A DNA stretch of 64,000 nucleotides from Clostridiales bacterium (GTDB taxonomy: Bacteria > Bacillota > Clostridia > Christensenellales > JAISNN01), in contig JAISNN010000053.1 of assembly GCA_031276195.1 (NCBI GenBank), positions 38,896-102,895 of the forward strand, written 5' to 3'. The position numbers and the translations under genes are program-made. A model generated the notes under the pieces. The model was not told the origin of the DNA. It did not search any database and was given only the letters and a program-made list of their open reading frames with translations. This document shows positions 286 through 64,000 of the stretch, piece after piece (position 1 is the first letter of the stretch; each line of letters begins with the position of its first letter).

Positions 286-3200
286 TTAACCGATATCGTC
301 GAAAGCCTCTTTCGTTACTCCGTATACCACCGTACACCCGCTCCAATTCCAATCGCTTGCCCAACTTGATTTTATCTCGTTCTCGCTCGCTTCCGTATAA
401 ACCGTCAAGTTATCCTTGCAATCCCGGAAAGCGAAACCCTCGACTTTGGTTACGGTTTTCGGAATATAGATTTTCGTTAAAGAGGTGCAACCCGTGAACG
501 TATTACCGTAGATTGTCGTTACTTTGCTCGGAATATTGATTTCCGTCAACCCCGAACAACTGTGGAACGCGCCGCCGCTGTTCGCGCCGCTTCCGATCTC
601 CGTTACGCTCTCGGGAAGAGTGATTTTCGTCAAACTTTTACAGCCGCTGAACGCCGCGTTACCGATCGTCGTTACGCCGTCCGGAATATTGATCTCCGCC
701 AAGTTCGAACAACCGATAAACGCCTGCTCTCCGATCTCCGTTACTTTTTCGGGAAGCGCGATTTCCGTCAAACTTTTACAGCCGCTGAACGCGCCGTATT
801 CGATTACCGTTACGCTTTCGGGAATTGTGATTTTCTCCAAACTTTCACATCCCGTGAACATACCTCTGTCCACTTGCGTTCTGCCCTCTTCAATTATGAC
901 TTCTTTCAAGTTTTTGCAGCCGCCGAACACGTGCGTTTCGAATTCGACGTCTTTCGGGATCGTGATTTTCTTCAAACCGTCGCATCCCCCGAAAGCCGAC
1001 GCTCCGATCGTCTTTACGCCGTTTGGAATTGCGAATTCTTTCAAGCCCGCGCCGTGGAACGCGTTTTCTCCGATCGTCGTTACGCCGTCGGGAAGACTGA
1101 TTTCCGTCAGACCCGAACAACCGTAGAACGCATACTTTCCGATTTCGGTTATGCCGCCGGAAATTTCAACATTTGTCAAACTCCCGCAGTTATAGAAAGT
1201 GTAGTCCTCGATTTTCGTCATTCCGTCGGGAATTTTGATATCGGTCGTCAAACTCTTGCAATCCTTGAACGCCTTTTCCCCGATCGACGTTATATTGTCT
1301 TTAATGTCGATCGTTTTCAAATCCGTACAGCCCTCGAACACGCTCGCGGCGATTGCCGTTACTTTTTCGGGGATTGTGATGCTCTCCAAACTCACGCAGT
1401 TCATAAACGCGGCGGGTTGGATATCCGCGACGCTATCCGGGATATTTATTTCCTTTAAATTTTTACAGTCATAGAACGCCGAACTTCCGATTGACGTTAC
1501 TTCGCCTGAAATTACGACCTTCGTCAAGCCCGTACAGCCAAGGAACATGGCGGGGCTGATTACCGTTACCGCGCTCGGGATTGTGATTTCCGTCAAGCCC
1601 GTGCAGAAACCGAACGCGATAACGCCGATCGACTCTACGCCGTCGGGGATTACGATCTTTGTCAAGCCCGCGCAGCCGTAGAACGTATTGTTCTTGATTT
1701 CGGTTACGCCTTTCGGAATATTAATTTCTTTCAAGCCCACGCAGCCGTTAAAAGCGTTTCCACCGATTGCCGTTACGCTGTCCGGAATGTCGAGCGCGGT
1801 CAAGCCCTCGCAGCCCCAAAACGCGCCCTCTCCGATCGACTTTACGCCGTTGGGGATTATGATCTTCGTCAAGCCCGCGCAGCCTTTGAAAGTATTGTCG
1901 CCGATTGCCGTCGCGCCGTCCGGAATTTTGATCTCCGTCGTCAAGCCCGCGCAGTCGTTGAACGCGCCCTCTCCGATTTCGGTTAAGTTTTTAGAGAGAT
2001 CGACCGACTCCAATTTCGCGCAGCCGTTGAAAGCGTAATTCCCGATTTTTTCCGCGCCGCCGTTGATATTGACCGATTTCAATTCGGAGCAATAGGAGAA
2101 CGCTTCCTCGCCGATTTTTTCCGCGCCGCCGGGAATGTCGACCGTCTTTAAACTCGTGTTAAAATAGAACGCTTTCTTGCCGATTTCGACCGCGCCGCCC
2201 TCGATTGTAATTTGCTCTAATTTTGGGCAGTTAGCGAACGCCTCCTCGCCGATCGTTCCCGCGTTCCCGTGAATTGCGACCGCCGTCAAGTCCGTTGTTA
2301 TATAGAACGCTTGATGTCCGATTTCACCTACGTTTCCGAAAATCTCAACCGTCGTCAAGCCCGTGCAAAAGGCGAACGCGCTCGCGCCGATTCTGTTCTT
2401 ATCGCCGTAAATCACGACCTTTTTTAAGCCGCCGTTATAGAAGGTAAAGTCCTTAATTTCCTTCACGCTTTCGGGAATTTCGATCGAAGTAACGTCTTTT
2501 CTGTGTCCAAAACTAACGTCGTCTATTCCCGTTACGGGCTTGCCCAAATATACCGCCGGGATAATTATATCTCCCCCCTCGCCGCCGCAATACATAACGT
2601 ATCCGTTTCCGTCCTCCGATTCGATATAGGGCAATAACGTAAAGTTAATGCTTGCGACCGCCTCCTCCATACTTTCAAGCGCGGTGTTATAAGCCGTTTC
2701 GATCGCGTCCGAACTATCCGCCGCCTCGATATTCGCGATACCTCTTGCGTGAGCCGCGTTCAACGCGTTAAGCGCGGACTGATCGAACCCGATATTCTCC
2801 GTCAGCGACTCGTCATACCGCTCGTTCAGACTCTTTGTATACGCCGCTTTTAGCAAAGCCAGCAATTTCGGCTTTTCCGCATCGACATCGACCGCGATCC
2901 ATTTCGCGGCAAAAATCAGCGTTTCGCCCGACGCGCCGTCCGCGTAGCCTCCGCTCTCGAATTCCCAGCCGCCGAATATGAAACCGTCCTTTGAGGGCGC
3001 GGAAGGATATTTTATTTTCTCTCCCTTTTTGACGGATATTTGATATTTCGCCTCGCCGTCCACGGTAAAGACGACGGTATAACCCTCGTTTTTGATCTTT
3101 TCCTTTTCGTAATAACTTCCGCCCCACGCGCCGGCGGCGAGAGAAATAGCGGCCAAAAGGATCAGCCCGACGAAGGCGGTCAAAATCCTGCCCCCTATCA

Positions 3201-3501
3201 CTCTGCGCGGAAGAATTTGAGTTTTAGTATCCGCCGTTCCCTTGCGTGAAAGAGGTTGAGTTTGAGCGTCCGGTATTCCGCGCGGTTGGACGTCCTCCGT
3301 TCCCCTCCGTTGAAGGGATTGGGGCGAAACAACCGTTTTCGGCGCGGCGGGATCACGCGGCGTAATTTTCGGCGCGGCATACGACGAAGGTTCGGGCGGC
3401 GCATAGACGAAGCCGCGCGAAATCAGACCCTTTACGTTCGGCGCGGTGTTGTAATCTCCTTTGCCGAACGCCGCACGGCTTGACGTATCGATATCTTTCA
3501 T
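286..3501 (-). CDS. BspA-type leucine-rich-repeat surface protein (Pro-rich N-terminal tail, single TM anchor, Listeria/Bacteroides-repeat-like beta domain, long LRR array)
   Basis: 1071-aa ORF. A ~23-aa unit (I.IP.gVt.IG..AF.gC..L) is iterated about 30 times. Hydrophobic anchor ILTAFVGLILLAAISLAAGAW follows a P/K-rich N-terminus. YTVVFTVDGE...GWEF motif precedes the LRRs. Confidence 0.8.
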   Translation of the reverse strand: MKDIDTSSRAAFGKGDYNTAPNVKGLISRGFVYAPPEPSSYAAPKITPRDPAAPKTVVSPQSLQRRGTEDVQPRGIPDAQTQPLSRKGTADTKTQILPRRVIGGRILTAFVGLILLAAISLAAGAWGGSYYEKEKIKNEGYTVVFTVDGEAKYQISVKKGEKIKYPSAPSKDGFIFGGWEFESGGYADGASGETLIFAAKWIAVDVDAEKPKLLALLKAAYTKSLNERYDESLTENIGFDQSALNALNAAHARGIANIEAADSSDAIETAYNTALESMEEAVASINFTLLPYIESEDGNGYVMYCGGEGGDIIIPAVYLGKPVTGIDDVSFGHRKDVTSIEIPESVKEIKDFTFYNGGLKKVVIYGDKNRIGASAFAFCTGLTTVEIFGNVGEIGHQAFYITTDLTAVAIHGNAGTIGEEAFANCPKLEQITIEGGAVEIGKKAFYFNTSLKTVDIPGGAEKIGEEAFSYCSELKSVNINGGAEKIGNYAFNGCAKLESVDLSKNLTEIGEGAFNDCAGLTTEIKIPDGATAIGDNTFKGCAGLTKIIIPNGVKSIGEGAFWGCEGLTALDIPDSVTAIGGNAFNGCVGLKEINIPKGVTEIKNNTFYGCAGLTKIVIPDGVESIGVIAFGFCTGLTEITIPSAVTVISPAMFLGCTGLTKVVISGEVTSIGSSAFYDCKNLKEINIPDSVADIQPAAFMNCVSLESITIPEKVTAIAASVFEGCTDLKTIDIKDNITSIGEKAFKDCKSLTTDIKIPDGMTKIEDYTFYNCGSLTNVEISGGITEIGKYAFYGCSGLTEISLPDGVTTIGENAFHGAGLKEFAIPNGVKTIGASAFGGCDGLKKITIPKDVEFETHVFGGCKNLKEVIIEEGRTQVDRGMFTGCESLEKITIPESVTVIEYGAFSGCKSLTEIALPEKVTEIGEQAFIGCSNLAEINIPDGVTTIGNAAFSGCKSLTKITLPESVTEIGSGANSGGAFHSCSGLTEINIPSKVTTIYGNTFTGCTSLTKIYIPKTVTKVEGFAFRDCKDNLTVYTEASENEIKSSWASDWNWSGCTVVYGVTKEAFDDIG

Positions 3502-3527
3502 ATTAAAATCTCCTGTTTATGATATTG

Positions 3528-3776
3528 TTATAAATTTTGTATAAGGACAGCCCTCACTCTCCAAACCTTTTTTGCAATTTTGTATGAGGTATTGTCCGCG
3601 TAAGATTTAAGCCGCCGTATTTACGCTTTTTCGGACATCCCCCCGCGTCCCAAACCTTTTTTTGTAATTTTGTATGAGGTATTGCCCGCGTAAGATTTAA
3701 GCCGCCGTATTTACGCTTTTTCGGACATCCCCCCCGCGTCCCAAACATTTTTTTGTAATTTTGTATAAGGATAGCC
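3528..3776. repeat. ~88-bp tandem direct repeat (about 2.5 copies) upstream of the LRR gene
   Basis: CCAAACCTTTTTTGYAATTTTGTATGAGGTATTGYCCGCGTAAGATTTAAGCCGCCGTATTTACGCTTTTTCGGACATCCCCCC is read twice in full, with partial copies on both sides. Confidence 0.85.
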
Positions 3777-3882
3777 TTTCAACCTTTATTTTACCTTTGT
3801 TTTTCAATTTTGAAAGCGAAACGGTATTAAGACTATCCTTGACAAACCTTTTACTTTGTTACTATGATTGAACGCCGTCCGT

Positions 3883-6800
3883 TTACCACAACGTCGGAAC
3901 TCCTCCCACATCGCGCCAACAACCCGCCTTTTCGATATCGGAATAATAATATATATTGCCGGTAAAGCCGTTGTTCCAATTAGCGTTCCACCCGTCGGAC
4001 GAACCCTTAATGTAAATCGTCAAATTGTCGCAAGCCCAAAACGCTTCGACTCCGATTTTCGTTACGCTCTCTGGAATTATGATCTCCGTCAACGCTACGC
4101 AATTCGAGAACGCATAATTTCCGATTTCATCCAAACCTTCGGCAAGATTGACCGTCGTTAAAGAGGTACAGCCCCAGAACGCCGAGATCCAAATATATTC
4201 TACGCTTTGCGGAATCGTGATCTCCTCCTTCAACGCCGTACAACCATAGAACGCATACGCCCAAATCTCTTCAACGCCGTCGGCAATAGTAACCGATGAC
4301 AAATTAGTGCAATTCTCAAACGCGCTTGATCCGACTATTTTTACTGTGGAGGGAATTAGAATCTCCGTCAATCCTTTTTGACCATAGAACGCGAAATCAC
4401 CAATTTTCGTTACGCCGTTCGGAATTATAAAATCGTTCGCCTTTGTTTCGGGACAGAATATCAGTTCAGTTTTTGCTTTGTTATACAAAACTCCGTCCTC
4501 GGACGCATAGTAATTATTGTTTATGTCAACGTTAATACTATCCGCTCCGCAGCCGCCGAACGCGCCATACGAAATATTCGTTACTCCGCTGTGTATGTCG
4601 ATTGCCGTCAAGTTTTCACAGCCCCTGAACGCCCATGACCAAATATATGTTACGCCGCTCGGTATTGCAAAACGATCCGCCCTCTTTCCCGCGGGATAGC
4701 ATATCAGTTCGGTTTTTGCTTTGTTATACAAAACTCCGTCTTCGGACGCATATTTTGGGTTCTCTTTGTCAACGGTAACGCTTTCTAACGAAGCGCAATC
4801 CGTAAACACGCGATTCCCGATTGCCGTTACGCCCTTATGGATCGTGATCGAAGTCAAACTCTTGCAACCCTCGAACGTTGAGAAAGGAATTGCCGTTACA
4901 CCGTCGGGTATTTTTGTGACCGAAGTCAATTTTTCGCAGCCGTAGAACGCATTTCCGTTTCCGCCGAGTGTCGTCAAACCTTCGGGAAGATTGATCGTCG
5001 TCAATTCCTTGCATTCGTAAAACGCGCGCGTTTCAATCTTTGTCAAACTTTCCGGAAGAGTAACGGTTTGCAACGCCGCGCAACCCTCAAACGCCCCGTT
5101 GTGTATTCTCTCTATGCCTTCGGAAATTATTACCGTCTTTAAATTCGTACAATTCTTAAACGCGTTGTCCCAAACCGTCCCCGGTCCGCCGTCTCTGTAT
5201 GAACCTACGATTCCCGGAATTGTGATAGATTCCAATTTTGAACAGCCAAAGAACGCTTCCTTATTGATTCTGTCCAAGCCTTTTGACAGTTTGACCTCCG
5301 CTAAACTTACGCAATACTTAAATGCGTAATACCCGAGTTCGGTTACGCTGTCGGGAATTACGATCGCCTCCAATTTTGAACAACCGTAAAACGCGCTCGC
5401 GCCGATTTTTTCCAAACCGTCGGCTATATTCACCGTCGTCAACTCATAGCAATACCTAAACGCGCCCTCCCCGATCGTTTCCGCGCCTAATATATCGGCT
5501 TTCGCCAACGTTATGCAATACTCGAACGCGAGATCCCCGATGGTTTTCACGCTTTTCGGGATTGCGATCGATTTCAATTCCAAGCAATTCCAAAACGCCT
5601 CTTTCCCGATCGTTTCCAACCCTTCGGAAAGATTGACCGCCGTCAAGCCCTCGCAATACTCGAACGCGTAATTCCCGATCTCTTTTACGCTTTCCGGAAT
5701 TGTAATAGATCCCAAATTCAAGCAATTCCAAAACGCGTTCGCGCCGATTGTTTCCACGCCGAAAGGAATTTCAACGGACGTAATATCCGCGTTCAAAAAT
5801 CCTCCGTCCGCGATTTTCACAACCTTTTTGCCCTTGTAGAGCGCGGGGATTATAATCTTTGTATCAACCGCGCTTCCGTAAGAAACCTCATAGCCGCCCG
5901 CGACCTCCGTATATGCCAGCCCGTCGGAGAATACGCTTTGAACCGCCTCCATTTCCGCGACCGCAGCGTCCGCCGCCGCCATTAATTCGTCGAGCACCGT
6001 TTCGCCGTACGCGTCCGCCCCGTCTATATATTTTACCGCCGCTTCAAAAATCGCCGTCAACGACGCCAACTCCGTCTCGGTATAACTCCCGTCCCCGATT
6101 AATTCGTCGTATTTATCTTGCAATATCGCTTTCATCTGCGCTTTGACCAAACTAACTCTCGCCGAATTATCCTTGACCCAAACCGCTTCCAGCGTCAAAT
6201 CTCCCTTCACCTTGCCGTCGGCAAGCGGCGCGCCGCTCACGAAGACCCAGCCGTCGAATATAAAGCCGTCTTTGGCGGGATCGGCGGCGGGATATTCTAT
6301 TTCCGCGCCGTTTTTGATTTTCGCCGTATAATATTCCGCTCCGTCGACCGTAAAGACGACGGTATATTCCGCGTTTTTAATCTTTTCACTCTCTATGTAG
6401 TTTCCGATCAACGCGCCCGATACCATAGAAATAAATACCAAAAGGATCAAACCCGTCAAGACCGACGCCGCCTTTACTTTTTTTCCGAACTCCGCCGGAT
6501 CAAACGGCTTTTTAGGTTTTTTAGGCTTAATCGGCTTAATAGGCTTTTCGGCGGCCGCAAGTTTCGGCGCGCTTTGCGTAGACTTAGCCGCGCTTTGCGT
6601 GGGCTTAGCCGCTTTCGGCGCGGAATTCAATTCGGCTTTCGGTTCCGCTTTCGGCGCGGCTTCCGCTGGTTTCGGCGCGGCCAAATCCCGCGAAACGGTC
6701 TTCGGCGGCGCGGCTTTCGGCGGCGCGTAGGACGACGGTACGGATTTCGTATATACTAAATTACTCCCGACCGCCGAAGGGATTTCCACGCCGTTCGTCG

Positions 6801-6957
6801 CATACGCCCCCCTCGGCGCGACTTTCGGCGGCGCGTAGGACGACGGCGCGGGTTTCGTATAGACGACTCCGCGCGATATTAATCTTTGGGCGTTCGGCGC
6901 GGCGTTGTACCCGCCGGGTTTAACAACCGCTTTACGCTCCGTGATCGAGTTTTCCAT
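3883..6957 (-). CDS. BspA-type leucine-rich-repeat surface protein, paralog of 286..3501
   Basis: 1024-aa ORF with the same architecture: P/A/K-rich N-terminus, TM segment VLTGLILLVFISMVSGALIG, YTVVFTVDG beta domain, then an LRR array. Confidence 0.8.
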   Translation of the reverse strand: MENSITERKAVVKPGGYNAAPNAQRLISRGVVYTKPAPSSYAPPKVAPRGAYATNGVEIPSAVGSNLVYTKSVPSSYAPPKAAPPKTVSRDLAAPKPAEAAPKAEPKAELNSAPKAAKPTQSAAKSTQSAPKLAAAEKPIKPIKPKKPKKPFDPAEFGKKVKAASVLTGLILLVFISMVSGALIGNYIESEKIKNAEYTVVFTVDGAEYYTAKIKNGAEIEYPAADPAKDGFIFDGWVFVSGAPLADGKVKGDLTLEAVWVKDNSARVSLVKAQMKAILQDKYDELIGDGSYTETELASLTAIFEAAVKYIDGADAYGETVLDELMAAADAAVAEMEAVQSVFSDGLAYTEVAGGYEVSYGSAVDTKIIIPALYKGKKVVKIADGGFLNADITSVEIPFGVETIGANAFWNCLNLGSITIPESVKEIGNYAFEYCEGLTAVNLSEGLETIGKEAFWNCLELKSIAIPKSVKTIGDLAFEYCITLAKADILGAETIGEGAFRYCYELTTVNIADGLEKIGASAFYGCSKLEAIVIPDSVTELGYYAFKYCVSLAEVKLSKGLDRINKEAFFGCSKLESITIPGIVGSYRDGGPGTVWDNAFKNCTNLKTVIISEGIERIHNGAFEGCAALQTVTLPESLTKIETRAFYECKELTTINLPEGLTTLGGNGNAFYGCEKLTSVTKIPDGVTAIPFSTFEGCKSLTSITIHKGVTAIGNRVFTDCASLESVTVDKENPKYASEDGVLYNKAKTELICYPAGKRADRFAIPSGVTYIWSWAFRGCENLTAIDIHSGVTNISYGAFGGCGADSINVDINNNYYASEDGVLYNKAKTELIFCPETKANDFIIPNGVTKIGDFAFYGQKGLTEILIPSTVKIVGSSAFENCTNLSSVTIADGVEEIWAYAFYGCTALKEEITIPQSVEYIWISAFWGCTSLTTVNLAEGLDEIGNYAFSNCVALTEIIIPESVTKIGVEAFWACDNLTIYIKGSSDGWNANWNNGFTGNIYYYSDIEKAGCWRDVGGVPTLW

Positions 6958-16140: not shown

Positions 16141-18452
16141 GCCGCGTCGGACGGCATTCTGAAATCCCCTCGCGGCGACAGCGAAACGCTCCCGATTTTC
16201 ACTCCGTCCGGCACGCAATTCCTTTTAAATTGATTGTTGAAAAATCTTTTTATAAACAATTTCAGCCATTTTTTCACGGTCTTTTCGTCGTATATTCCCT
16301 CGAAAGCCCGAACCGCGATTCTCAAAACTTTCGCCGGCGAAAATCCGAATCTGACGGTATAAAAGAGGAAAAAATCGTGCAGTTCATACGGCCCGACGAT
16401 ATCCTCCGTCCTCTGGACGATCCCGCCGCCGCCCGAAACGGGCAAAAGTTCGGGGCTTATCGGCGTGTCGAGAATCTCATTCAAAACCGCGCCCGCGCGG
16501 CCGCCCAGACGCGCGCCCTCGTATGCCGCGAGATACTTGACAAGTGTTTTCGGCACTGAGGAATTCACGGCGTACATACTCATATGATCGCCGTTATACG
16601 TGCAAAAACCCAAAGCCGCTTCCGAAAGGTCGCCCGTTCCGACGACGATCCCGCCCGCGGCGTTCGCGATATCCATAAGAACCTGCGTTCTCTCCCGCGC
16701 CTGCGCGTTTTCGTAGGACGCGTCGAAAAGTTCTTTTTTTCGGTACTTCCCGATGTCGGCGAGGTGGAGTTTTACGCTCTCTTTTATGTCTATCGTATCG
16801 AACGTTACGCCGAGCGCTTTCATCAGTTCGAGAGAATTTTTGTATGTCCGCTCCGACGTCCCGAAACAGGGCATCGTGATCCCGATTATGTCCTTGCGCG
16901 AACGTCCGAGAAAGTCCATAGCGCGAACCGCGACAAGCAAAGCAAGAGTGGAATCCAGCCCGCCGCTAACGCCGACGACCGCCTTAAAACCGCTCAAAAG
17001 CCGCTTTTTTAAAGCGTGCGACTGCATATCGAGTATCAATTCGGCGCGGCCGTACAACTCCTCTTTTCCTTCGGGAACGAACGGTCTTTTCGGGTATTCT
17101 CTGGTCAGCGAAACGGGCGTGTTTTTTAAGGCAAAATTGACGGTTCTATACCGCGTTTTTCCGTCCGTTTCGAGGGCGTAATTCGCAAGTTTCGAGCGTT
17201 CAAAATTGAGGGCGGAAAGGTCGATTTCCGATATTATCATTCCGCATCCGAACAACCTATTTTCACGCTCCGCGGTCTTGCCGAAAGCATTTTCGCAAGG
17301 CGTACTCTTTTCATTTTCGATAACGGCTTTTTTATTTAAAACCGCTTGCGGCGGTTTATCTAATCCGCATTCGCAAGACGTACTTTTTTCGTTTTTTAAT
17401 TCGTTTGACGGACGCGCGAACGGCTTTCTCTCAGCCAAAATCCTGCCGTTTTCGGCGATTATATTATGCCCTCCGAAGACTAAATCGCTTGTCGATTCTC
17501 CCTCTCCCGCCGACGCGTATATATATGCGGAGATCAGTCTCGCGGACTGTCCCGTAACGAGAGAGCGGCGGTATTCGGCTTTGCCGACCGTTTCGTTGCT
17601 CGCGGAAAGATTGACCAAAACGACCGCGCCGGCCTCCGCATGCGAGGAAGACGGCGGCGACATAACCCAAAGATCTTCGCAAATCTCCGCGGAAACCAAA
17701 AGTCCTCCGACGTTTTCGCATTCGTATATAATCCGATCGGAAAACGGCGTTTCTATACCGCGGTTTTCCGCGCTTTTCCCCGAGATTTTTCCGCTTGAAA
17801 TTCCAAAATCCTCCGATGACTTTCCGCTTCCGTTGCCGCGTTTCAACGCTTCCGCGCAATCGGTTTTTATAATCTCGTCTATATTTTTTCCGCTCGAAAA
17901 CTGTCTTTTGTCATAAAATTCATTATAATTCGGAAGGTACGATTTCGGAGTCAAGCCCAAGATTTTTCCGCCCTTGACCGCCGCCGCGACGTTATAAATT
18001 TTCGATTTAAACATAAACGGCAGTCCGACGAAAACCAATATATCATCGCGTCCGCCGTTCTTTCCTTCCGCCGAATCATCCGAAAGCGCGGAATTGCCCG
18101 AGGCGGTCAAACCGCCGTCTTTTTTCGCCGAACCGTCATAACGCGCGGAATTGCCCGAGCCGTTCTTTCCTTCCGCCGAACCGTCCGAAACGTAAGAATG
18201 ATCATCCGAACCAACCGCCGTAAAATCTCTGATTTCTAAAAGAGCGTCCCAAGCCGCTTTCAAAAGCGTTCCTTGATAAAATAGGTCGCCGCAAGTATAG
18301 CCCGTAATGCAAAGTTCGGGCAGAACGAGTATTTTGACTCCCTCCGCCGCCGCGAGGGAAACGCACTCCTTTATTTTCTTTGCGTTGTGCCGCGTATCGG
18401 CGACGACGATATGCGGCGTCGCCGCGGCAACCTTGATAAAGCCGTCTTTCAT
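16107..18452 (-). CDS. nadE: Glutamine-dependent NAD+ synthetase (CN-hydrolase domain plus NAD synthetase domain) with in-frame insertions
   Basis: VLPELCITGY (nitrilase-type domain), SGGLDS PP-loop, C-terminal NAD synthase region. 781 aa, longer than I recall for this family. Confidence 0.9.
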   Translation of the reverse strand: MKDGFIKVAAATPHIVVADTRHNAKKIKECVSLAAAEGVKILVLPELCITGYTCGDLFYQGTLLKAAWDALLEIRDFTAVGSDDHSYVSDGSAEGKNGSGNSARYDGSAKKDGGLTASGNSALSDDSAEGKNGGRDDILVFVGLPFMFKSKIYNVAAAVKGGKILGLTPKSYLPNYNEFYDKRQFSSGKNIDEIIKTDCAEALKRGNGSGKSSEDFGISSGKISGKSAENRGIETPFSDRIIYECENVGGLLVSAEICEDLWVMSPPSSSHAEAGAVVLVNLSASNETVGKAEYRRSLVTGQSARLISAYIYASAGEGESTSDLVFGGHNIIAENGRILAERKPFARPSNELKNEKSTSCECGLDKPPQAVLNKKAVIENEKSTPCENAFGKTAERENRLFGCGMIISEIDLSALNFERSKLANYALETDGKTRYRTVNFALKNTPVSLTREYPKRPFVPEGKEELYGRAELILDMQSHALKKRLLSGFKAVVGVSGGLDSTLALLVAVRAMDFLGRSRKDIIGITMPCFGTSERTYKNSLELMKALGVTFDTIDIKESVKLHLADIGKYRKKELFDASYENAQARERTQVLMDIANAAGGIVVGTGDLSEAALGFCTYNGDHMSMYAVNSSVPKTLVKYLAAYEGARLGGRAGAVLNEILDTPISPELLPVSGGGGIVQRTEDIVGPYELHDFFLFYTVRFGFSPAKVLRIAVRAFEGIYDEKTVKKWLKLFIKRFFNNQFKRNCVPDGVKIGSVSLSPRGDFRMPSDAAAEIWIRDLED

Positions 18453-18519
18453 TAGCGGTCATTTCCTCCGGCAAGTATTTTTAAAGAAAATTTCGATCGG
18501 ATATATCCGTCCGTTTTAT

Positions 18520-18770
18520 ATAGCGTATATTATATAATTCAACGCCTTACGCAAGACATATTTCTATAATATATATTATATAATTCAGCGGTTTGCGCCC
18601 GTCTGTTTTTATAACGTATATCATATAATTCAACACCCCGTACGGGCTTATTTTTGTGATATATGCTATATAATTCAACGGTTTTATATATGGTATTTAT
18701 ATGATATATATCATATAATCCGACCTTGAAATGCGTACGATTTACATAATATACTTTATATAATTTCCCG
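18520..18770. repeat. AT-rich tandem repeat (unit ~60 bp; TATATCATATAATTCAAC core)
   Basis: ATATATTATATAATTCA(A/G)CG-type cores recur about 5 times. Confidence 0.75.
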
Positions 18771-18842
18771 TATGTTTCTTATGCAAAAAAACTCTTTTTT
18801 TATCATTTTCATATATTTTTTATGCAAAAAAAGCCCCTTTTT

Positions 18843-19498
18843 CAAAAAAAGTCCCGGGGCGGTCTTTCGGATAAACCTTGCGCCTTAGGTCCGGTTGGAT
18901 TTCCCATTCATACCGCGCGCCCGCCGTCGCCGAAACGAGCCGTTTCCGATTAGCGCGGCGTCCGGGGGCGAAGCCCCGAATACCGGATTACCACTTAGTA
19001 CACACTATAATCCCCGAAAGACCAAAATAAATTTCAGCCTAGAAGTTTTCCTTATTACGGCGCACGGATACATTTAGCTTTATTTTGCAAAGACAGGTTT
19101 CACGGAGCAACCGGCGAATATCCTTTGGCCAAGGATGTCCGCGCGTAATCCCCGATTCTCCCGCATCACTCAAAGCAGGCTACTCTGCACACAGCAAAGT
19201 CTTGCCGCGATGCAGGTTTAATCCTAAGAGGTAGCCTTTATGTGTTATTACGCCACCCCGATAGGTCTCCGCGAAAAATGGGACGGATCCGCCATGCCGT
19301 TGACGGCCGCCCATAATTCTTAACTTCCAGCACAAGCCCCAATTTGGCGATTAAAGCCCGCACAAGAAACTTCATCGATGTGCCCTTTTGCGTTTTGTAA
19401 CGACCCGCTTTTCAATGCAACCCGCGCCGACTAGGATACTGCGCCGCCGGGATAAGGTGCCGCCCGAGGCAAACTTTTTGCGTTAAGCCCCGAACGCC
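18843..19498 (-). ncRNA. Candidate large (~650 nt) structured non-coding RNA, class unassigned
   Basis: GC-rich island between AT-rich repeat spacers with no ORF of 60 aa or more on its strand. A near-consensus promoter lies immediately 5'. It has many local hairpins (e.g. GGGGC-UUCG-CCCC 18964-18977, GAAACG-GCU-CGUUUC 18932-18946, AUCCUU-GGCCA-AAGGAU 19120-19136). A U7 tract sits at the 3' side (18844-18850). Confidence 0.45.
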
Positions 19499-19505
19499 AT
19501 AATAT

Positions 19506-19534
19506 AGTATATCAAAAATAAGCGCAATAATCAA
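19506..19534 (-). promoter_or_regulatory. Sigma-70-type promoter for the candidate ncRNA
   Basis: On the minus strand: TTGATT (19534-19529), a 17-nt spacer, then TGaTATACT (-10 at 19511-19506). The GC-rich segment starts about 7 nt downstream. Confidence 0.55.
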
Positions 19535-19661
19535 TCTTTTTTAGTAACTTTTTATACCGTATCTTTGAATTGCAGATTAAATTGCCGCCGTTTTGCCCGA
19601 AAATGTAATTTAATCAAGAAAAAATTGTAAAAATTTCAATGAAAATACGGCATTTTTCATA

Positions 19662-19698
19662 CAAAAAACGGAAGCCGCAATTTGCCGCTCCCGTTTTT
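19662..19698 (-). terminator. Intrinsic terminator after the 19751..20467 membrane-protein gene
   Basis: Imperfect hairpin ACGGGAGCGGCAAAUUGCGGCUUCCGU followed by U6 on the minus strand. Confidence 0.6.
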
Positions 19699-19750
19699 AG
19701 AACCCGTATTGATGAATAAGAGGTAAACAACTAATCTATATTAATCCTCT

Positions 19751-20467
19751 TTACGAAACCGAAATAAAAATCAAAACCGCGATAAAAAACAGAATGAAAG
19801 CGACGTTAAAGCCCGCGCCGTCCAAATACGGCGAGCCGATTTTGGTATATTTTCTTAAAACCGCCAACGCGGGCACGATGAAAATCGGCGTAAAAAAACC
19901 GAAAAACCAAGGCATTTCCGTCTGTCCCGCGAAAATCAAAACGGAAAAAATTATCCATCCCGACGCGGTCGCGCCGATCGCGGAAAACCACGTGATAAAC
20001 AAAAACTTCACATATTCGTCGAAAGTTCCGACCGCGTCCGCGCTTATCTTTTCGCCCGATTTATAGGTTTCATAGAGGTTTTTGCTCTCAACTCCGACAT
20101 AATAAAAGGCGATATGGGCGGGCGGCGACAACGTAAACCCCGCGCCCAGCAAAACCAAAGCGGCGGCAGACCAAAATGACGGGACGGACAAGGCGTACTG
20201 AGAATACAGCGAAAAAAGCATAAACGGCGCGCCGAAAAAGCCGCAAAGCGCGCCGGCGCGAAACCTTTTAACCGAACCTTCAAGCATATAATACGCGAAT
20301 TTCTTCTCCTTTACGGGAAGATTTTTCAAATAATCCGTATATTTATTTGCGTCCGGAGCAAAGCCGACGAGGAATATATCCCCGAACATCCATATAATTC
20401 CGCTCAAAAGTCCCGCGATAACGGCCGCTTCAACCATTTCGACACCTCCGCTTTTGCCGTTCGGCAA
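19751..20467 (-). CDS. Hypothetical polytopic membrane protein
   Basis: 238-aa ORF with about 6 hydrophobic segments. No motif I recognise. The true start may be the internal Met (MVEAAVIAG). Confidence 0.6.
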   Translation of the reverse strand: MPNGKSGGVEMVEAAVIAGLLSGIIWMFGDIFLVGFAPDANKYTDYLKNLPVKEKKFAYYMLEGSVKRFRAGALCGFFGAPFMLFSLYSQYALSVPSFWSAAALVLLGAGFTLSPPAHIAFYYVGVESKNLYETYKSGEKISADAVGTFDEYVKFLFITWFSAIGATASGWIIFSVLIFAGQTEMPWFFGFFTPIFIVPALAVLRKYTKIGSPYLDGAGFNVAFILFFIAVLIFISVS

Positions 20468-28651: not shown

Positions 28652-29000
28652 GAATTATATGACTTATATTATATAATTTGTATTATATAAATACCCCTTT
28701 AATAGGCGGCGGACATTATAACATAAGCGATATAATTACGCCGCAAAAAACATAATACTTTGCCGCCCGTTTACGGAGCGGATATTATAACGCAAACGGT
28801 ATAATTACGCCGCAAAAACATAATACTTTGCCGCTCGTTTACGGAGCGGATATATAATATAAGCGATATAATTACGTACAAAACGTAATACGGTACCGCC
28901 CGTTTACGTATGGATTTTTATATAACGATTACACTTTAATTCCGCGGATTTACACGCGGAATTATATAATACAAATTATATAATTTATGTTATATAATTC
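28652..29000. mobile_element. MITE-like element: ~38-bp imperfect terminal inverted repeats around three ~62-bp direct repeats, no ORF
   Basis: The left arm GAATTATATGACTTATATTATATAATTTGTATTATATA (28652-28689) is the reverse complement (30/38 matching) of the right arm TATATAATACAAATTATATAATTTATGTTATATAATTC (28964-29000). Confidence 0.4.
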
Positions 29001-34090: not shown

Positions 34091-34417
34091 TACGCCATAG
34101 CCAACTCTATACGCCGCAACCAAAATTCCCCTCCGCAGGAGGGGTGTAGGGGTGGGGCGACCGAATAACGAATTCCGTACGTCATAACCAACTCTATACG
34201 CCGCAACCAACTCCATACGTCATAACCAAAATTCCCCTCCGTGGGAGGGGTGTAGGGGTGGGGCGACCGAATAACGAATTCCGCACGTCATAACCAACTC
34301 TATACGCCGCAACCAACTCCATACGTCATAATCAAAATTCCCCTCCGTGGGAGGGGTGTAGGGGTGGGGCGACATTATTATAATTCAGCAACCAAAATTC
34401 CCCTCCGCAGGAGGGGA
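34091..34417 (+). repeat. Hairpin plus G-tract repeat family, 4 cores, ~118-bp period
   Basis: AAAATTCCCCTCCG(T/C)(G/A)GGAGGGGTGTAGGGGTGGGGCGACCGAATAACGAATTCCG...CATAACC is reiterated. Confidence 0.9.
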
Positions 34418-36010: not shown

Positions 36011-36080
36011 TGCGTTTTTTAGCCTTTATCTTTCGGTATGCTATTAATAATCCGCACTTCTCAGCCTTTATATTTTCTAT

Positions 36081-36348
36081 AATTCCCCTCCGTGGGAGGG
36101 GCAGGGGTGGGGCGAACTTCCCTTATTATCCTTATATTCCCCTCCGTGGGAGGGGATCAAAGGGGTGGGGCGAACTTCCATCACTTTCCTTACATTCCCC
36201 TCCGTGGGAGGGGATTCAAGGGGTGGGGCGAACTTCCCTTATTATCCTTATATTCCCCTCCGTGGGAGGGGATTCAAGGGGTGGGGCGAACTTCACTCAT
36301 TATCCTTACATTCCCCTCCGTGGGAGGGGATCTAAGGGGTGGGGCGAC
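36081..36348 (+). repeat. Hairpin plus G-tract repeat family, 5 copies, ~59-bp period
   Basis: Unit ATTCCCCTCCGTGGGAGGGGAT(T)CAA(A)GGGGTGGGGCGAACTTCCCTTATTATCCTTAT. Confidence 0.95.
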
Positions 36349-36713
36349 CGATTAGCATACATATTTTTATATATATTCCAATCAATCTTTCTATCTTTCA
36401 TATTTATTATACCACATTATGCAACTCAACGCAATAGTTTTTTATATATTTTTTAATCACGGTTCATATTTCTCGACCGCCGACCGCTAACCGCCGACCG
36501 CCGACTTGCTAAATAATACCGCCGCCGCTCAGTTGCTAACCGCGGCAATAAATAAAAACCCTCTCGATCAAGAGGGTAAAACGCCGCGTAATTTCCTTAT
36601 TGCCAAGATATATCGGTGCAAAGGACGCTTATTTCTCCGCGCGTTCGCCTCTTCCCGCGTCAAATACTTAGACTGCCCCGTTTCTTTCGCGGCGACGGCT
36701 TCCGCATATGCCG

Positions 36714-39715: not shown

Positions 39716-39924
39716 AAATTCCCCTCCGTGGGAGGGGATAAAAGGGGTGGGGCGGTCTCTCTTTACCCTTATATTCCCCTCCGTGGGAGGGGTCAAGGGG
39801 TGGGGCGAACTTCCCTTATTATCCTTACATTCCCCTCCGTGGGAGGGGATCTAAGGGGTGGGGCGAAACTTCCCTTATTATCCTTACATTCCCCTCCGTG
39901 GGAGGGGATCAAGGGGTGGGGCGG
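39716..39924 (+). repeat. Hairpin plus G-tract repeat family, 4 copies
   Basis: CCCCTCCGTGGGAGGGG(A)T(C/A)(A)AAGGGGTGGGGCG cores with a ~58-bp period. Confidence 0.95.
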
Positions 39925-40019
39925 ACTCTCTTATTTTCCGCAAAATCCCTCCGTTCGGGATAATAAAAAAAGCGTATTTAAACGCCGCAAAGTTACTAAA
40001 AGTTTTTGAAAGAGGGCGC

Positions 40020-45231: not shown

Positions 45232-45470
45232 ATATTTCCTCCCCGAACGGCATAAGCCGCTTGTTTTTGATTTTGAATTTCTGTATTTTATCCTTTCGGT
45301 GTTTTTTCTTTTTTTGATAATTCTAACCCGAACGGCATAAGCCGCTTGTTTTTGATTTTAAATTTCTGTATTTTATCCTTTCGGTGTTTTTTTTTTGATA
45401 ATTCTAAAAATGTATGATAAAATAGTGGTCAGCGGTCGGCGGCGGTTATTTACCGCTTAGCGGTTCTCTA

Positions 45471-45800
45471 TCCTTATATTCCCCTCCGTGGGAGGGGTAG
45501 GGGTGGGCGAATCCTCTCACTTTCCTTATATTCCCCTCCGTGGGAGGGGATCAAAGGGGCGGGGTGAAACTTCCCCCACTTTCCTCATATTCCCCTCCGT
45601 GGGAGGGGATCAAAGGGGTGGGGTGAAACTTCCCCCACTTTCCTCATATTCACCTCCGTGGGAGGGGATCCAAGGGGTGGGGAGAAACTTCCCCCACTTT
45701 CCTCATCTTCCCCTCCGTGGGAGGGGTAGGGGTGGGGCGACACTTCCCCCACTTTCCTCATATTCCCCTCCGTGGGAGGGGATCAAAGGGGTGGGGCGAC
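45471..45800 (+). repeat. Hairpin plus G-tract repeat family, 6 copies
   Basis: CCCCTCCGTGGGAGGGG...GGGG(T/C)GGGG...ACTTCCCCCACTTTCCTCATATT units with a ~58-bp period. Confidence 0.95.
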
Positions 45801-45958
45801 CGTTTTGGATTTATACCGATTTTTATCACTCATTTTGAAAACTGCCTTTTTTAAATTTCCGTATTTCCGTTTATCTTTCTTTCTTGAAATTTGGATATTA
45901 TTTCCCTCAATACTTGCGCCCGCAATCACTCTCCCGTAATTCTCCGCGCTTCCCGTTC

Positions 45959-48720: not shown

Positions 48721-49677
48721 ATGGACGAGTCCCGTAATAAAGAATTTTCAAGGTTTTTCATTAAAAGGCTTTTGCCTGCGTTTGCCGTAATAGCGGTCTC
48801 GCTTATCGCGATGTGTTCGTGCGAATTTTTAAAAGGGATTTTCAACCCGGAAAAAAACGCGAAAGAGCCGGCTAAATATGCCGTTACATATATTATGAAC
48901 GGCGGAACAAACAACGCGGATAATCCGACCGAATATACCGAAGAGGACGGAATAACCTTGAAAGATCCGACGCAAAAGGTGTGCGTTTTCAAGGGCTGGC
49001 GCGAAGACGGAAAATTCGTTTCGGGGATAGAAAAAGGAAGCGCGGGGAATAAAACCTTTACCGCCGAATGGGAATTGGCGGATTCTTTTGAATACGGATT
49101 AGAATTTGAAGACACGGCGGCGGATTCATATGAGGTAACGGATTATAACGGAAAGGCGGCGGACGTAATAATACCGAGTATGTATTACGGTAAGCCCGTA
49201 ACGGGCATCGGCTCGTTCGCGTTTTCTTCATGCAAATCATTAAGCGGTATAGTAATACCGAATAGCGTTAAGAACATAGGTTCTAATGCTTTCAACGGTT
49301 GTTGGTCATTATCTATCGTAGCGATACCGGACGGCGTGGAGAGTATAGGCGCGAATGCGTTCTATGAGGCGGGTATATGGAACAATGCGGGCAGAGGAGT
49401 AGTATATGCCGACAAATGGGCGGTGGGATACAAAGAGGACGGCCGGACGGATATAACGTTAAAGGCGGAAACCGTCGGGATAGCCTCAAACGTGTTCTAT
49501 CGGTTTGAAACATTACGGAGCATAGAGATACCGAACGGGGTCAAAAGGATAGGCGCGAAAGCGTTCGCTTATTGCCCCGAATTAACGATATACTGCGAAG
49601 CGGACGGAGCACAGGGCGGATGGGATTCTGCTTGGAATTATAGTAATAGACCCGTAATATGGGGATATAGAAAATAA
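48721..49677 (+). CDS. Small BspA-type LRR surface protein with Listeria/Bacteroides-repeat domain
   Basis: Signal/anchor FAVIAVSLIAMCSC, YAVTYIMNGGTNN...FKGWRE...FTAEWE domain, then 4-5 LRR units. Confidence 0.75.
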   Translation: MDESRNKEFSRFFIKRLLPAFAVIAVSLIAMCSCEFLKGIFNPEKNAKEPAKYAVTYIMNGGTNNADNPTEYTEEDGITLKDPTQKVCVFKGWREDGKFVSGIEKGSAGNKTFTAEWELADSFEYGLEFEDTAADSYEVTDYNGKAADVIIPSMYYGKPVTGIGSFAFSSCKSLSGIVIPNSVKNIGSNAFNGCWSLSIVAIPDGVESIGANAFYEAGIWNNAGRGVVYADKWAVGYKEDGRTDITLKAETVGIASNVFYRFETLRSIEIPNGVKRIGAKAFAYCPELTIYCEADGAQGGWDSAWNYSNRPVIWGYRK

Positions 49678-53040: not shown

Positions 53041-53100
53041 CCGTATACCCGACTCCATATCCTTTTAAAAAGTTGAGATTAAGAGTGTAAGTCCGTCCTC

Positions 53101-53255
53101 AAATTCCCCTCCGTGGGAGGGGCAAGGGGTGGGGCGAAACTTCCCTCACTTTCCTTATATTCCCCTCCGTGGAATGGGATCAAAGGGGTGGGGCGAAACT
53201 TCCCTCACTTTCCTTATATTCCCCTCCGTGGAATGGGATCAAAGGGGTGGGGCGA
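53101..53255 (+). repeat. Hairpin plus G-tract repeat family, 3 copies (2 with a disrupted hairpin arm)
   Basis: Copy 1 is CCCCTCCGTGGGAGGGG. Copies 2-3 are CCCCTCCGTGGAATGGG. Confidence 0.95.
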
Positions 53256-53462
53256 ATTTACCCGACGCTTCCAAGTGCGGGGCGTTTATATAACGCATTA
53301 TATCATACTTATATAACGTTTTTAGCGGTACTATACCGCGAAAAACAATCCGTACGGCAAGGCGCGCGGTATTATCAAAAAACTCTCGTTCCCATAATAA
53401 AAAACACCTTTTCCTCGCGGTACTATACCGCGAAAAACGTTATATAAACGCCCTACGATACG

Positions 53463-58754: not shown

Positions 58755-59450
58755 TTATTTTCTAAAAATTTCGCATAAATCGGAGTCTATAATCAGTTCT
58801 TGAATTTCTATATTTTCGATTGTTTTTATATTAACGCTCCCGTCCTCGATTAAGATTAAGGATACGTCTTGAATTTCGCAATGCTTTAAAAACAATTTCA
58901 ATTCCTCGTTTGACAAAAATTTTGTTAAAAAAAGGAATATAAATATTTTAGTTTTTAAAAGTTCCGCGCACGCGTTGACATACGCCGTCAATTTTTCTAA
59001 CAAGCGTTTATAGTTTTCTTTTAATTCAAGCGAGAACAATTTAAAAACGCCGCCCGCATCGCAATCTTCGTTTAAAACGACGTCGTACCCGACGTCCGTA
59101 CTGATTTTTTTGCAAAAACAATACAATTCCTCGACTTTACTTTTAAATTCGTACTCATATTCGGGTTCGGCGGTTATCGCGCCGTATTTTTTATATAGCG
59201 CGGTTATGAGTTTTTTTGAATTCAGCGTCAAGCCGGGCAAATTCGTTTCGATCCGGCAAAATTTTTGAATCGATTGTTTTTCGTATTTTTTATCGGTCAA
59301 TAGAAAGCCGCTCTCTCCTCCCTCGCAAGCCTCCGTCAACTCGCTCAGGTACGACCACAACTTGCCTTTATTTTCTATGCTTACGACGGTCGCTCTGCCC
59401 GAAAAAACTTCCGGCGTATTCTCCCAGTCGTTATGCTTAAATAAAAACAT
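58755..59450 (-). CDS. csn2: Type II-A CRISPR-associated protein Csn2
   Basis: 231 aa, last gene after cas2. The C-terminal half (KIFIFLFLTKFLSNEELKLFLKHCEIQDVSLILIE) parallels S. pyogenes Csn2 ([34 protein letters not shown], from memory). Confidence 0.7.
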   Translation of the reverse strand: MFLFKHNDWENTPEVFSGRATVVSIENKGKLWSYLSELTEACEGGESGFLLTDKKYEKQSIQKFCRIETNLPGLTLNSKKLITALYKKYGAITAEPEYEYEFKSKVEELYCFCKKISTDVGYDVVLNEDCDAGGVFKLFSLELKENYKRLLEKLTAYVNACAELLKTKIFIFLFLTKFLSNEELKLFLKHCEIQDVSLILIEDGSVNIKTIENIEIQELIIDSDLCEIFRK

Positions 59451-59527
59451 CCGCGTTTTATCCGCCTTTTACTTTCAAATTTTGTCTTCGGTTTTTTCCG
59501 TATTTTTAAACCGCATGTATGCGCCGC

Positions 59528-59848
59528 CTAATATTCTGTCCATCTTTTGTCCGAATCCAAAATTTTTGTCTGTCCCTTGCCCGCCATATATTCGATATCC
59601 GCGTATTGTTTTTCGGTGATCTCGATACATTGGACAAGCCCGTTTTGCGGAACGTTTTTGCGGAGCAGAGCCTTAACGCTTTCAGCTTGCGTTCCGTTCA
59701 AAGCAAGTTTTGAATAGACGGAATATTGCTGCATAATAAAGCCGTTTTTTATTAAAAATTTATGAAATCCGCGATAAGCCTTGCCGTCGTTCGACGTGAG
59801 CGTCGGCAAATCAAAAAACACTAAAATCCTCATATATCTGTATCTCAT
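59528..59848 (-). CDS. cas2: CRISPR-associated endoribonuclease Cas2
   Basis: MRILVFFDLP...KAYRGFHKFLIKNGFIMQQYSVYSK is the canonical type II Cas2 pattern. Confidence 0.9.
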   Translation of the reverse strand: MRYRYMRILVFFDLPTLTSNDGKAYRGFHKFLIKNGFIMQQYSVYSKLALNGTQAESVKALLRKNVPQNGLVQCIEITEKQYADIEYMAGKGQTKILDSDKRWTEY

Positions 59849-59972
59849 ATCTTTCCGATTTTATCCGCCGTTTTATTGTGCGTTCATAAGCATAGCGGAC
59901 AAACCAAAAAGCCGCAATTCCGCATATCTATACCGCGCGGCCGTCGACTTTTACTAACGCAATTCCGCATAC

Positions 59973-60839
59973 CTATATCGCGTAACCCTCGACCATTACT
60001 AACTCGTCCGTCTCGCCCTTCATAAACCTAAGCGCGGAACGGACAAAAATTTCGCATGCGGAATCCAAATAAAATTCCCGTTTTTTAATCGTTATTTTCA
60101 TAGAAAGAAGTTTACTCGCCTCCGATTTAAAATCGTCGTCCTTGCAATACGTGATGACGAAATCGTCCGTGAGGGGACGGAAAACCTCCATTAAGTCGCA
60201 CGCCAAATTATATTCGTTAAACTGATTTTCGTGCCGGATTCCGAGCGCGTTTATATAGCCCGAAGCGGTTACGCACCTTGCGATTTCGCTCATCAAAACC
60301 GCGTAGGCATAATTTAGGGCGGAATTTATCCGCCCTCCGTTTCTTCTCGAAAAATTAACTCCGAATAAGGAATTAAAATAGACTTTCGCCGCGTGTCCCT
60401 CACGGTTTGTCGCGTCGTTTTCCGTTATCTCCCCGATGTATTTTTTTAACATATCGGCGGATTCCGCTTCGTTGTATTTTTCCAAAACTCTCATTTGCCA
60501 AAAAATCTTTTGCGAAACGATTTTCCTCCATAAAGCGGATTTTTTGTCCGCGTCCCAACGCGACTGCGTTTTAATATTCCCGCTGCTTCCGTAATTCGCG
60601 CTGAAAGGCGTCAATCCCGCGTACGGCATATGCTTTTCGTTGCAAAACACGACGTTTACGTTGGCGTTTAAAAGTTCCAGCAACGCCTGACAGGTAACGG
60701 CGCAACCGGTGGATTCGACAATCAAGGCGTCGATTTCCGAAATATTACACCACTTTTCCTCGTCGCCGCGTATAATCAAATATCCGAGTCTGGTTTCAAG
60801 TTTAGCCCTGTTTTTGACGACTATCGTTCTAAATCCCAT
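59973..60839 (-). CDS. cas1: CRISPR-associated endonuclease Cas1 (type II)
   Basis: 288 aa. REGHAAKVYF, NSALNYAYAVL, GIRH...N.YNLACDLMEVFRP motifs. Confidence 0.9.
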   Translation of the reverse strand: MGFRTIVVKNRAKLETRLGYLIIRGDEEKWCNISEIDALIVESTGCAVTCQALLELLNANVNVVFCNEKHMPYAGLTPFSANYGSSGNIKTQSRWDADKKSALWRKIVSQKIFWQMRVLEKYNEAESADMLKKYIGEITENDATNREGHAAKVYFNSLFGVNFSRRNGGRINSALNYAYAVLMSEIARCVTASGYINALGIRHENQFNEYNLACDLMEVFRPLTDDFVITYCKDDDFKSEASKLLSMKITIKKREFYLDSACEIFVRSALRFMKGETDELVMVEGYAI

Positions 60840-60992
60840 AATAATTCTTTTGCCCGAAAAGCCTTTAAAGGCTTTAAGCTAATCCCGTAATGATTTCGCA
60901 ATATCGGAACGGCGTTTTCCGCGCCGCGGTATAAATTTTCGTCCGTATAAAAACCGGAATCCGTATTAACGAATAAAAAACGAACGAAAAAA

Positions 60993-63900: not shown

Positions 63901-64000
63901 ATTTTTCTCTCCGCCCACACGTGGCGTTTTCCGTCCGGATTGTAGACGTTCAGCCTCCCCGCGTAAAACGGAACTCTAAACGTCAGCAAGGAAATTATCT
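60993..64000 (-). CDS. cas9: Cas9 (type II-A), partial: N-terminal ~440 aa lie beyond the window edge
   Basis: FRVPFYAGRL matches SpCas9 FRIPYYVGPL (about residue 445). RuvC-II IFIEVTRE, HNH YDIDHIIPRT..LDNKALV..LNNKKSDKYP, RuvC-III NDLHHAYDAYLNIVVG. The reading frame stays open to position 64000. Confidence 0.9.
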   Translation of the reverse strand, partial: IISLLTFRVPFYAGRLNVYNPDGKRHVWAERKINGVKITPWTFDSVIDEDKSAENFIRRMLAKCTYIRAEDVLPKYSLFYSKYAVLNELNNVKIRGSKIDVQLKQNIYNDLFLKEKNITANRLLKYLTVKVDKSLTAEDLSGFDKDGKGFNSSLSPHICSRPIVEKLKETCKIPEEYAVEIIENVILWRALLSDKDMLVRKIKKEYAAIPDGIIKDLKGLNGSAFGRLSKRFLTEEFVSDGVTGEYTSIINLLWNTNENLMEILYDSKYNIQNALAQMNGNSNGGFSYADIEESYGAPSVKRAVWEACRVCGELIDLNEGRIPDKIFIEVTRETGDKKKGKSGDKKKGKRTKTRKEQIKELYKEIKKQDIGIAELEKELEKQSDSRLRKEKLFLYFTQCGKCAYSGEPIKIENLDDDNIYDIDHIIPRTLRKDGSLDNKALVRKDLNNKKSDKYPLIKTEEIYKNISKLTPMWAAWKKAKLISVEKFDRLTRTTELTEDEIKNFLARQLNFTGQSAILAASLFKRKFGVEQTPSTKKGEQPNKKPEIVYSKGGNVGDFRQKFNIIKCRDVNDLHHAYDAYLNIVVGNVYNERFNHNINLWKNEEDKFAQYNQNHLFEYNVKDAWRANSAPKPIRPKEENFPDKDQYRRAMDEYRRGFAEWLDNSPTIKTVKGVVSKPYYTVTKKVVENKGAFYDETIYGVEVKQKKFKEGGGLKKIKDAAVPIKGCDKNPRGDMRKYGYFKSENPAYFMIAEHTVTKNEGKKKCEFQERTFISVPILDKSRIEKDALKFLSEDCGLVNPKIIASKVYKYTLFEMSGTPVRLAGFVEWHNAVEWFASGFAAEYIKLLAKYKKYVEAKIFKENEVKDKTEITVSGDGVNNTKKQTISKRLNLDLFNEIKAQLEKNIYKGNKVLYGKLTGEHADKFKDLDIISQIKILAELMKVLKSGAGRGNLSDIGASGSFGRFTGSAKIDAPLVMIKESVTGVKTKRTQIYPFKGCGYKET

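Follow-up and report, generated by a model that had tools for sequence, protein, structure and literature searches.

What is encoded by the GC-rich island that separates a membrane-protein gene from nadE, and why it stands beside nadE, are the questions raised by this locus, which lies in a 64-kb stretch of DNA (the window) from a 104.8-kb source contig. An earlier note on this DNA had proposed a structured non-coding RNA of about 650 nt with its own promoter, belonging to OLE, ROOL or GOLLD, or to a new class. The setting is as described there: GC is 0.47-0.55 at 18800-19500, against 0.27-0.33 on both sides, the segment is placed between a DUF6796 membrane-protein gene (upstream) and nadE (downstream), and the three hairpins that had been singled out are all present (Table 1). 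The description of the minus strand as devoid of open reading frames beyond a few codons was too strong, given that the longest frame across the segment reaches 51 aa on this strand (and 60 aa on the plus strand), although none of the minus-strand frames is long.

The earlier note had suggested a comparison with Rfam, and our cmscan search of the whole window returned OLE RNA (RF01071) at 19463..18840 on the minus strand, with 355.8 bits (E 6.6e-101; the gathering score of the family is 50) and over model positions 1-616 of 616, that is, without truncation. In this match, 216 of the 249 upper-case (highly conserved) consensus positions of the model are retained and 140 of its 156 base pairs are canonical. 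We therefore regard it as practically certain that the segment is a gene for OLE (ornate, large, extremophilic) RNA, which bears out the proposed structured RNA over the full length of the model. OLE is the sole Rfam family above threshold in the 64 kb; ROOL, GOLLD, RNase P, tmRNA, SRP and group I/II introns give no match at gathering score anywhere in the window, in line with the reported lack of RNase P, tmRNA, SRP and group II signatures, and a permissive scan of 18300-19800 returns, besides OLE, weak matches only, far under their thresholds. Among the classes originally offered, OLE is thus the one that stood, whereas ROOL and GOLLD find no match and novelty falls away: the OLE class has been known since 2006, so the window RNA is not a new RNA. 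ROOL, GOLLD and raiA, like OLE, are large, highly structured and form homo-oligomers (PMC12286853), but the window RNA has no Rfam match to any of the three within 18300-19800, even at E <= 1.

Table 1. Features of the ole locus, in window coordinates.
Feature	Position	Strand	Remark
DUF6796 membrane-protein gene	19751..20467	-	Pfam PF20599; upstream of ole
ole promoter: -35 TTGATT, 17-nt spacer, extended -10 TGaTATACT	19506..19534	-	promoter scan
5' leader	19464..19499	-	variable among relatives, missing in L162
OLE RNA structured core	18840..19463	-	624 nt, Rfam RF01071
P1 closing helix, 5' strand UCCCGGCGGC	19443..19452	-	pairs with 18852-18860
First model hairpin (positions 54-73, P2-like)	19389..19408	-	degenerate here
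Hairpin AUCCUU-GGCCA-AAGGAU	around 19127-19130	-	sequence
GGCC, self-complementary, apical loop of long stem (P9)	19127..19130	-	invariant in 5/5 lineage members
P13 hairpin GGGGC-UUCG-CCCC, CUUCG cap replacing family GNRA tetraloop	18961..18980	-	sequence; model positions 487, 488, 491 (G, G, A) changed
Hairpin GAAACG-GCU-CGUUUC	about 18932-18946	-	sequence
GCGA tetraloop of P14.1	18927..18930	-	CGGCGACG invariant in 5/5 members
P1 closing helix, 3' strand GCCCCGGGA	18852..18860	-	first U7 tract directly 3'
Two U7 tracts, probable transcript end(s)	18826..18850	-	sequence
ole-nadE spacer array	18515..18778	.	six copies, 45-46-nt spacing, of AT-rich 22-nt near-palindrome TTATATRATATAYRYTATATAA, then TTCAAC
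nadE, glutamine-dependent NAD+ synthetase, 781 aa	16107..18452	-	Pfam CN_hydrolase + NAD_synthase

Probable signals of transcription lie on both sides of the RNA. Upstream, the DUF6796 gene ends with the terminator that had been assigned to it (19662-19698), a hairpin of -20.8 kcal/mol followed by a T-run (z = -4.9; 0 of 200 shuffles as good), and the near-consensus promoter announced for the RNA is also found, with a TG before its -10. Promoter-like sites in the region are not more numerous than expected from shuffled sequence; the -35, the spacing and the -10 of this one are invariant, at the same position of the alignment, in the window and in three related loci (L160, L161 and L162), and a fourth relative (L167) has TTGCTA-17-TATAAT in the same place, again with TG upstream of the -10. 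Transcription of ole would be expected to start near 19499. Downstream, the U7 tract near which the segment had been said to end is one of two (18844-18850 and 18826-18832), and U-rich tracts lie 3' of P1 in all relatives, so that the 3' ends of ole probably fall at these tracts; the hairpin ahead of the second tract is weak (z = -0.45). The closing helix P1 is absent from the Rfam structure line, and in L167, as read by eye, its strands are UCGU..GUGG and CCAC..ACGA, changed on both sides with the pairing kept.

Compared with canonical OLE RNAs, such as those of Halalkalibacterium halodurans, Clostridium acetobutylicum or C. botulinum, the 624-nt window RNA belongs to the same length class, forms the same helices and shares the blocks AAGGGCACAUCGAUGAAG, GGAUUAAACCUGC, CUAAGUGGUAAUCC and GGACCUAAG together with the GGCC loop of the long stem. 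The host is likewise a member of the Bacillota and the next gene is likewise co-oriented: the gene content fits Clostridia (CtsR, a ClpB-type AAA+ ATPase, a rubrerythrin and BspA-type LRR proteins), and the nearest NadE homologues carry the names of Clostridiales or Clostridia bacterium MAGs. The differences are a lower score (356 vs 444-557 bits), 20 changes at near-invariant positions, a degenerate P2-like hairpin, a non-GNRA loop in P13 and the placement of ole between the DUF6796 gene and nadE, without ispA upstream or oapA downstream.

[quoted passage not shown] Scanning GTDB species genomes with a 20-mer from the OLE core yielded at least 120 loci; nearly all of the 120 listed carry OLE (L105 has no OLE match), and the reading frame directly 3' of it codes for a membrane protein of 190-260 aa from a single family. 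An HMM for this family, OapA, was built from 86 such proteins; every member reaches at least 184 bits with it, and, in agreement with published work on OapA, Pfam CNNM is matched weakly. The protein is encoded downstream in 105 of the 120 loci listed, the other 15 being cut within about 100 nt past OLE or lacking the OLE match (L105), with the exception of L007, a 3-kb contig in which the 440 nt downstream (1-440) hold no OapA but short repeats up to the contig end (the genes upstream of its ole are the canonical xseA-xseB-ispA). Scanning metagenomes with a 25-mer that the window has in common with L007, the nearest OLE, gave 37 further loci, none of them close to the window; oapA lies directly downstream in the 25 where it was found, and every locus with enough room has it, except L123 and the low-coverage L142. 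L123 (1-1271), without OapA directly downstream, is possibly chimeric; beyond ole it turns GC-rich and carries a gene in the opposite orientation.

At the window locus, the gene that follows ole on its strand is not oapA. The OapA HMM, run with filters off on all six frames of the window, finds no match (best E 0.13, in a P-type ATPase), which leaves an oapA-free span of 18.8 kb downstream and 44.5 kb upstream of ole, nor is a CNNM domain found when the other window proteins are scanned against Pfam. The membrane protein encoded upstream was considered as a replacement partner and rejected: homologues of DUF6796 (at most 53% identity) occur in unrelated contexts without OLE, the relatives described below carry other genes upstream of ole, and the protein is encoded in 0 of 157 other OLE loci among the matches listed.

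The relatives were found via NadE, and not via DUF6796 (no tblastn-confirmed match in GTDB genomes) or the lineage-biased 25-mer used on metagenomes; exact-sequence look-ups of the window's own proteins gave no record. Four metagenome contigs, whose NadE is 66% (L160), 65% (L161), 56% (L162, JGI 3300042648) and 56% (L167, JGI 3300042615) identical in amino acids to that of the window, all have OLE directly upstream of nadE, with 344-371 bits, and share with the window the order nadE, YhhN, alpha/beta-hydrolase, then Asp23, FakA and RecG, as far as each contig permits. Within this lineage nadE is hence the conserved downstream neighbour of ole. The OapA HMM has no match in L160-L163 or L167. 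More distant NadE homologues (L164-L166, 50-54% identity) have neither OLE nor OapA nearby, and the ole-nadE linkage is therefore confined to the lineage, of which our sample holds five members, with part of each genome visible. The NadE of the window is 781 aa long, compared with about 635 aa in most homologues, and contains low-complexity insertions rich in Gly, Ser and Lys; the closest relatives also have a long NadE (681-748 aa).

An OLE RNA without its usual neighbour could be a relic, left over after the loss or relocation of oapA, non-functional and drifting. The score of the window RNA under the Rfam model, 90-200 bits below those of 18 other OLE RNAs, would fit such a history, as would its departures at near-invariant positions (of the 211 alignment columns in which 101 other OLE RNAs are at least 95% conserved, the window RNA keeps 191 and departs at 20, the mean of the others being 2.1, sd 3.1, maximum 20), the weak pairing of several distal helices in the lineage, and the published OLE genes, rare and apparently defective, in organisms lacking OapA (PMC11332333). 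The comparison of the five lineage members speaks against it. OLE is 79-96% identical among them, whereas the flanking genes show 69-84% nucleotide identity between the window and L160-L162, and NadE of the relatives is 56-66% identical; none of the flanking coding genes is as well conserved as OLE, and the divergence of these genes excludes that the five loci are near-clonal. When the Rfam structure is projected onto the five-sequence alignment, 87.5% of the cells are paired, vs 84.5% with shuffled partners and 38-44% with slid partners, and 23 pairs are changed on both sides, vs 9.8 +/- 2.1 with shuffled partners (0 of 500 shuffles reach 23) and 2-9 with slid ones. Twelve of the departures from near-invariant columns are common to the window, L160, L161 and L162 (the four compared), and are thus fixed characters of the lineage and not scattered changes. 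The promoter, the dimerisation loop and most of the conserved blocks are intact. Judging from these alignments, in particular from the identity of OLE relative to NadE and from the 23 compensatory pairs, the RNA is under purifying selection for structure and is not a decaying copy. The idea of a relic is already contradicted by the data, and we attach almost no probability to it. Three outcomes that the earlier note had set against its own proposal, namely a pseudogene remnant, a lack of homologues and a lack of covariation, fail as well, with more than 150 homologues and the compensatory pairs just described.

Selection has not preserved all parts of the RNA alike. Six departures from near-invariant family columns sit in the first hairpin of the model, which by its position would be P2; its loop, a near-invariant CUAAAAA in the wider OLE family, differs among the five lineage members, and 57% of its cells are paired, suggesting that this hairpin has lost its constraint. 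Of the two OapA contacts that have been mapped, one lies in or near P2 (PMC12265935, PMC9723947). OapB binds primarily at the GNRA loop of P13, and replacing this loop by UNCG abolishes binding (PMC7936274). This loop reads CUUCG in the window, is also non-GNRA in L160 and L161, and is GAAA in L162 and L167; as the window loop is CUUCG and not GNRA, binding of OapB at P13 has probably been lost in this genome. The tetraloop of P14.1, which is the secondary OapB site (PMC7936274), is kept throughout the lineage, and OapB is dispensable in some OLE clades (PMC11332333). Also kept in all five members is the GGCC of P9, which forms the kissing-loop contact of the dimer in cryo-EM models (PMC12265935).

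These changes bear on an alternative in which oapA has been lost altogether and the RNA either uses another membrane anchor or persists as a reduced particle tied to the expression of nadE. No oapA is seen in the 64 kb or in the contigs of the four relatives (altogether some 127 kb, partly syntenic), the P2-like hairpin, close to one of the mapped OapA contacts, is degenerate and differs between members of the lineage, the P13 loop has lost its GNRA form in three of the five members, and the RNA is nevertheless under strong purifying selection; the rare, apparently defective OLE genes of organisms without OapA (PMC11332333) are also in its favour. However, the sequence examined covers only a small part of each genome and a lost adjacency is not a lost gene, the surveys find near-complete co-occurrence of OLE and OapA and call OapA indispensable (PMC11332333), and L100 and L068, whose OLE RNAs are equally divergent, still have oapA adjacent. 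We consider the complete loss of oapA unlikely, and we are equally doubtful of the fuller claim that a conserved OLE lineage, three of whose five members lack the OapB loop, works without OapA and is transcribed with nadE. If it were true, OLE RNA would have a core function independent of a protein so far held indispensable.

The published subdivision of the class offers a further point of comparison. Based on Infernal scores, OLE RNAs have been divided into full-length (at least 390 bits), variant 1 (310-390) and variant 2 (235-310) forms (Fernando & Breaker 2024, PMC11332333), variant 1 having shortened distal stems, often lacking the OapB site at the end of P13, and being found in several clades of uncultured gut Clostridia (PMC11332333). 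The 344-371 bits of our lineage fall within the variant 1 range, a correspondence that is a proxy only, the scores coming from the Rfam model and not from the authors' model. Some features would fit variant 1, in that one distal stem (helix 5) is degenerate and the P13 GNRA loop is missing in three of the five members; the window RNA, however, is not shorter than full-length OLE, and the paper describes neither a nadE context nor a lost oapA adjacency for variant 1 (PMC11332333). With the apparently defective OLE genes reported in the same study, the window OLE has in common a lower score and the lack of an oapA nearby, but it differs from them in belonging to a conserved lineage with covariation and a conserved promoter. 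If the lineage is among the genes described there as defective, the present data show that it is not defective.

The position of ole suggests how it might be expressed. The two genes are co-oriented and tightly linked, the spacer in L167 measures 25 nt, and a promoter scan of the window spacer finds no promoter-like site on the minus strand, observations from which we infer that ole and nadE probably form one transcription unit. In L167 (4270-4296), the OLE match ends in a U8 tract and the start codon of nadE follows after only 25 nt, which include a ribosome-binding site; this implies co-transcription. Such a unit would mirror the usual ole-oapA arrangement. The same linkage could also mean that the RNA mainly controls the expression of nadE in cis, the OLE fold acting as a leader whose P1 and U-tract work as a regulated terminator or attenuator. 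P1 followed by U-tracts does resemble an intrinsic terminator, ole is directly adjacent to nadE on the same strand in 5/5 loci, separated from it by as little as 25 nt (L167) or 89 nt (L161), and the spacer of the window has, as said, no minus-strand promoter-like site of its own. But an attenuator requires far less than an RNA of 620 nt carrying the full complement of conserved OLE blocks, OLE acts in trans in every case studied, the spacer varies from 25 to 934 nt, and co-transcription is also usual for ole-oapA, where it carries no implication of cis-regulation. We judge a leader function to be decidedly improbable, although it would be compatible with the explanation that we prefer.

In that preferred explanation, the minus strand would be transcribed from a sigma-70-type extended -10 promoter belonging to ole itself, and the transcript would fold into the OLE architecture and end at the U-tracts, with partial termination at P1 and the U-tracts probably allowing read-through into nadE. 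The ole-nadE order replaces the usual ispA-ole-oapA order in this lineage of uncultured Clostridia, which is small and divergent but conserved. By homology with the RNA of other species, the molecule would dimerise through the kept GGCC kissing loop and serve as the scaffold of a membrane-associated OLE ribonucleoprotein, a particle that supports Bacillota under stress from alcohol, cold, Mg2+ and poor carbon sources. The oapA gene would lie at another place in the genome, which the published co-occurrence of OLE and OapA makes the most probable arrangement. We think that this statement as a whole (a functional OLE RNA, an ole-nadE lineage and an oapA that is elsewhere) is probably correct, with a fair measure of doubt; counting against it are the 90-200 bits that separate the RNA from 18 other OLE RNAs and the loss of constraint near the reported OapA contact.

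The value of the lineage is that of a natural experiment for this class of RNA, in which the RNA has stayed under strong selection while three features have changed: the adjacent oapA is lost, one hairpin near a mapped OapA contact is relaxed, and the OapB-binding loop is lost in some members. Should OapA prove truly absent from complete genomes, the view that it is indispensable would need revising, and the conserved parts of the RNA would mark its protein-independent core.

The ole-nadE spacers of the five loci (387 nt in the window, 934 in L160, 89 in L161, 301 in L162 and 25 in L167) are unrelated and cannot be aligned. In the window the spacer holds the TTATATRATATAYRYTATATAA array, and a motif search for this box gives 20 matches vs 0.07 expected by chance; similar boxes are found at 28655-28997, between two diacylglycerol-kinase paralogues. 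We considered whether these AT-rich repeats belong to the RNA or form a conserved element and rejected both, as they are not present in the ole-nadE spacers of the relatives and tandem arrays occur in many intergenic regions. The spacer of L160 (5893-6826) carries a different tandem array, with units of about 70 nt, which is annotated at source as a 155-aa gene. In this lineage, repeats seem to expand readily just downstream of ole.

Intergenic tandem arrays abound in this genome. One dispersed family, with units of 58-59 nt that contain the hairpin CCCCTCCGTGGGAGGGG, is present at five or more loci; arrays lie at 34231-34384, 36074-36402, 39718-39935, 45468-45809 and 53097-53265, besides many other regions, and the periods of further arrays are 22, 27, 32, 33, 39, 64, 71, 74 and 106 nt. 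Three BspA-type leucine-rich-repeat surface proteins are encoded at 286-6957 and 48721-49677, two of them longer than 1000 aa, with internal 69-nt repeats. Finally, type II-A CRISPR-Cas genes occupy 58755-63989 on the minus strand, coding for Cas1, Cas2 and Csn2 and for a Cas9 that runs past the end of the window.
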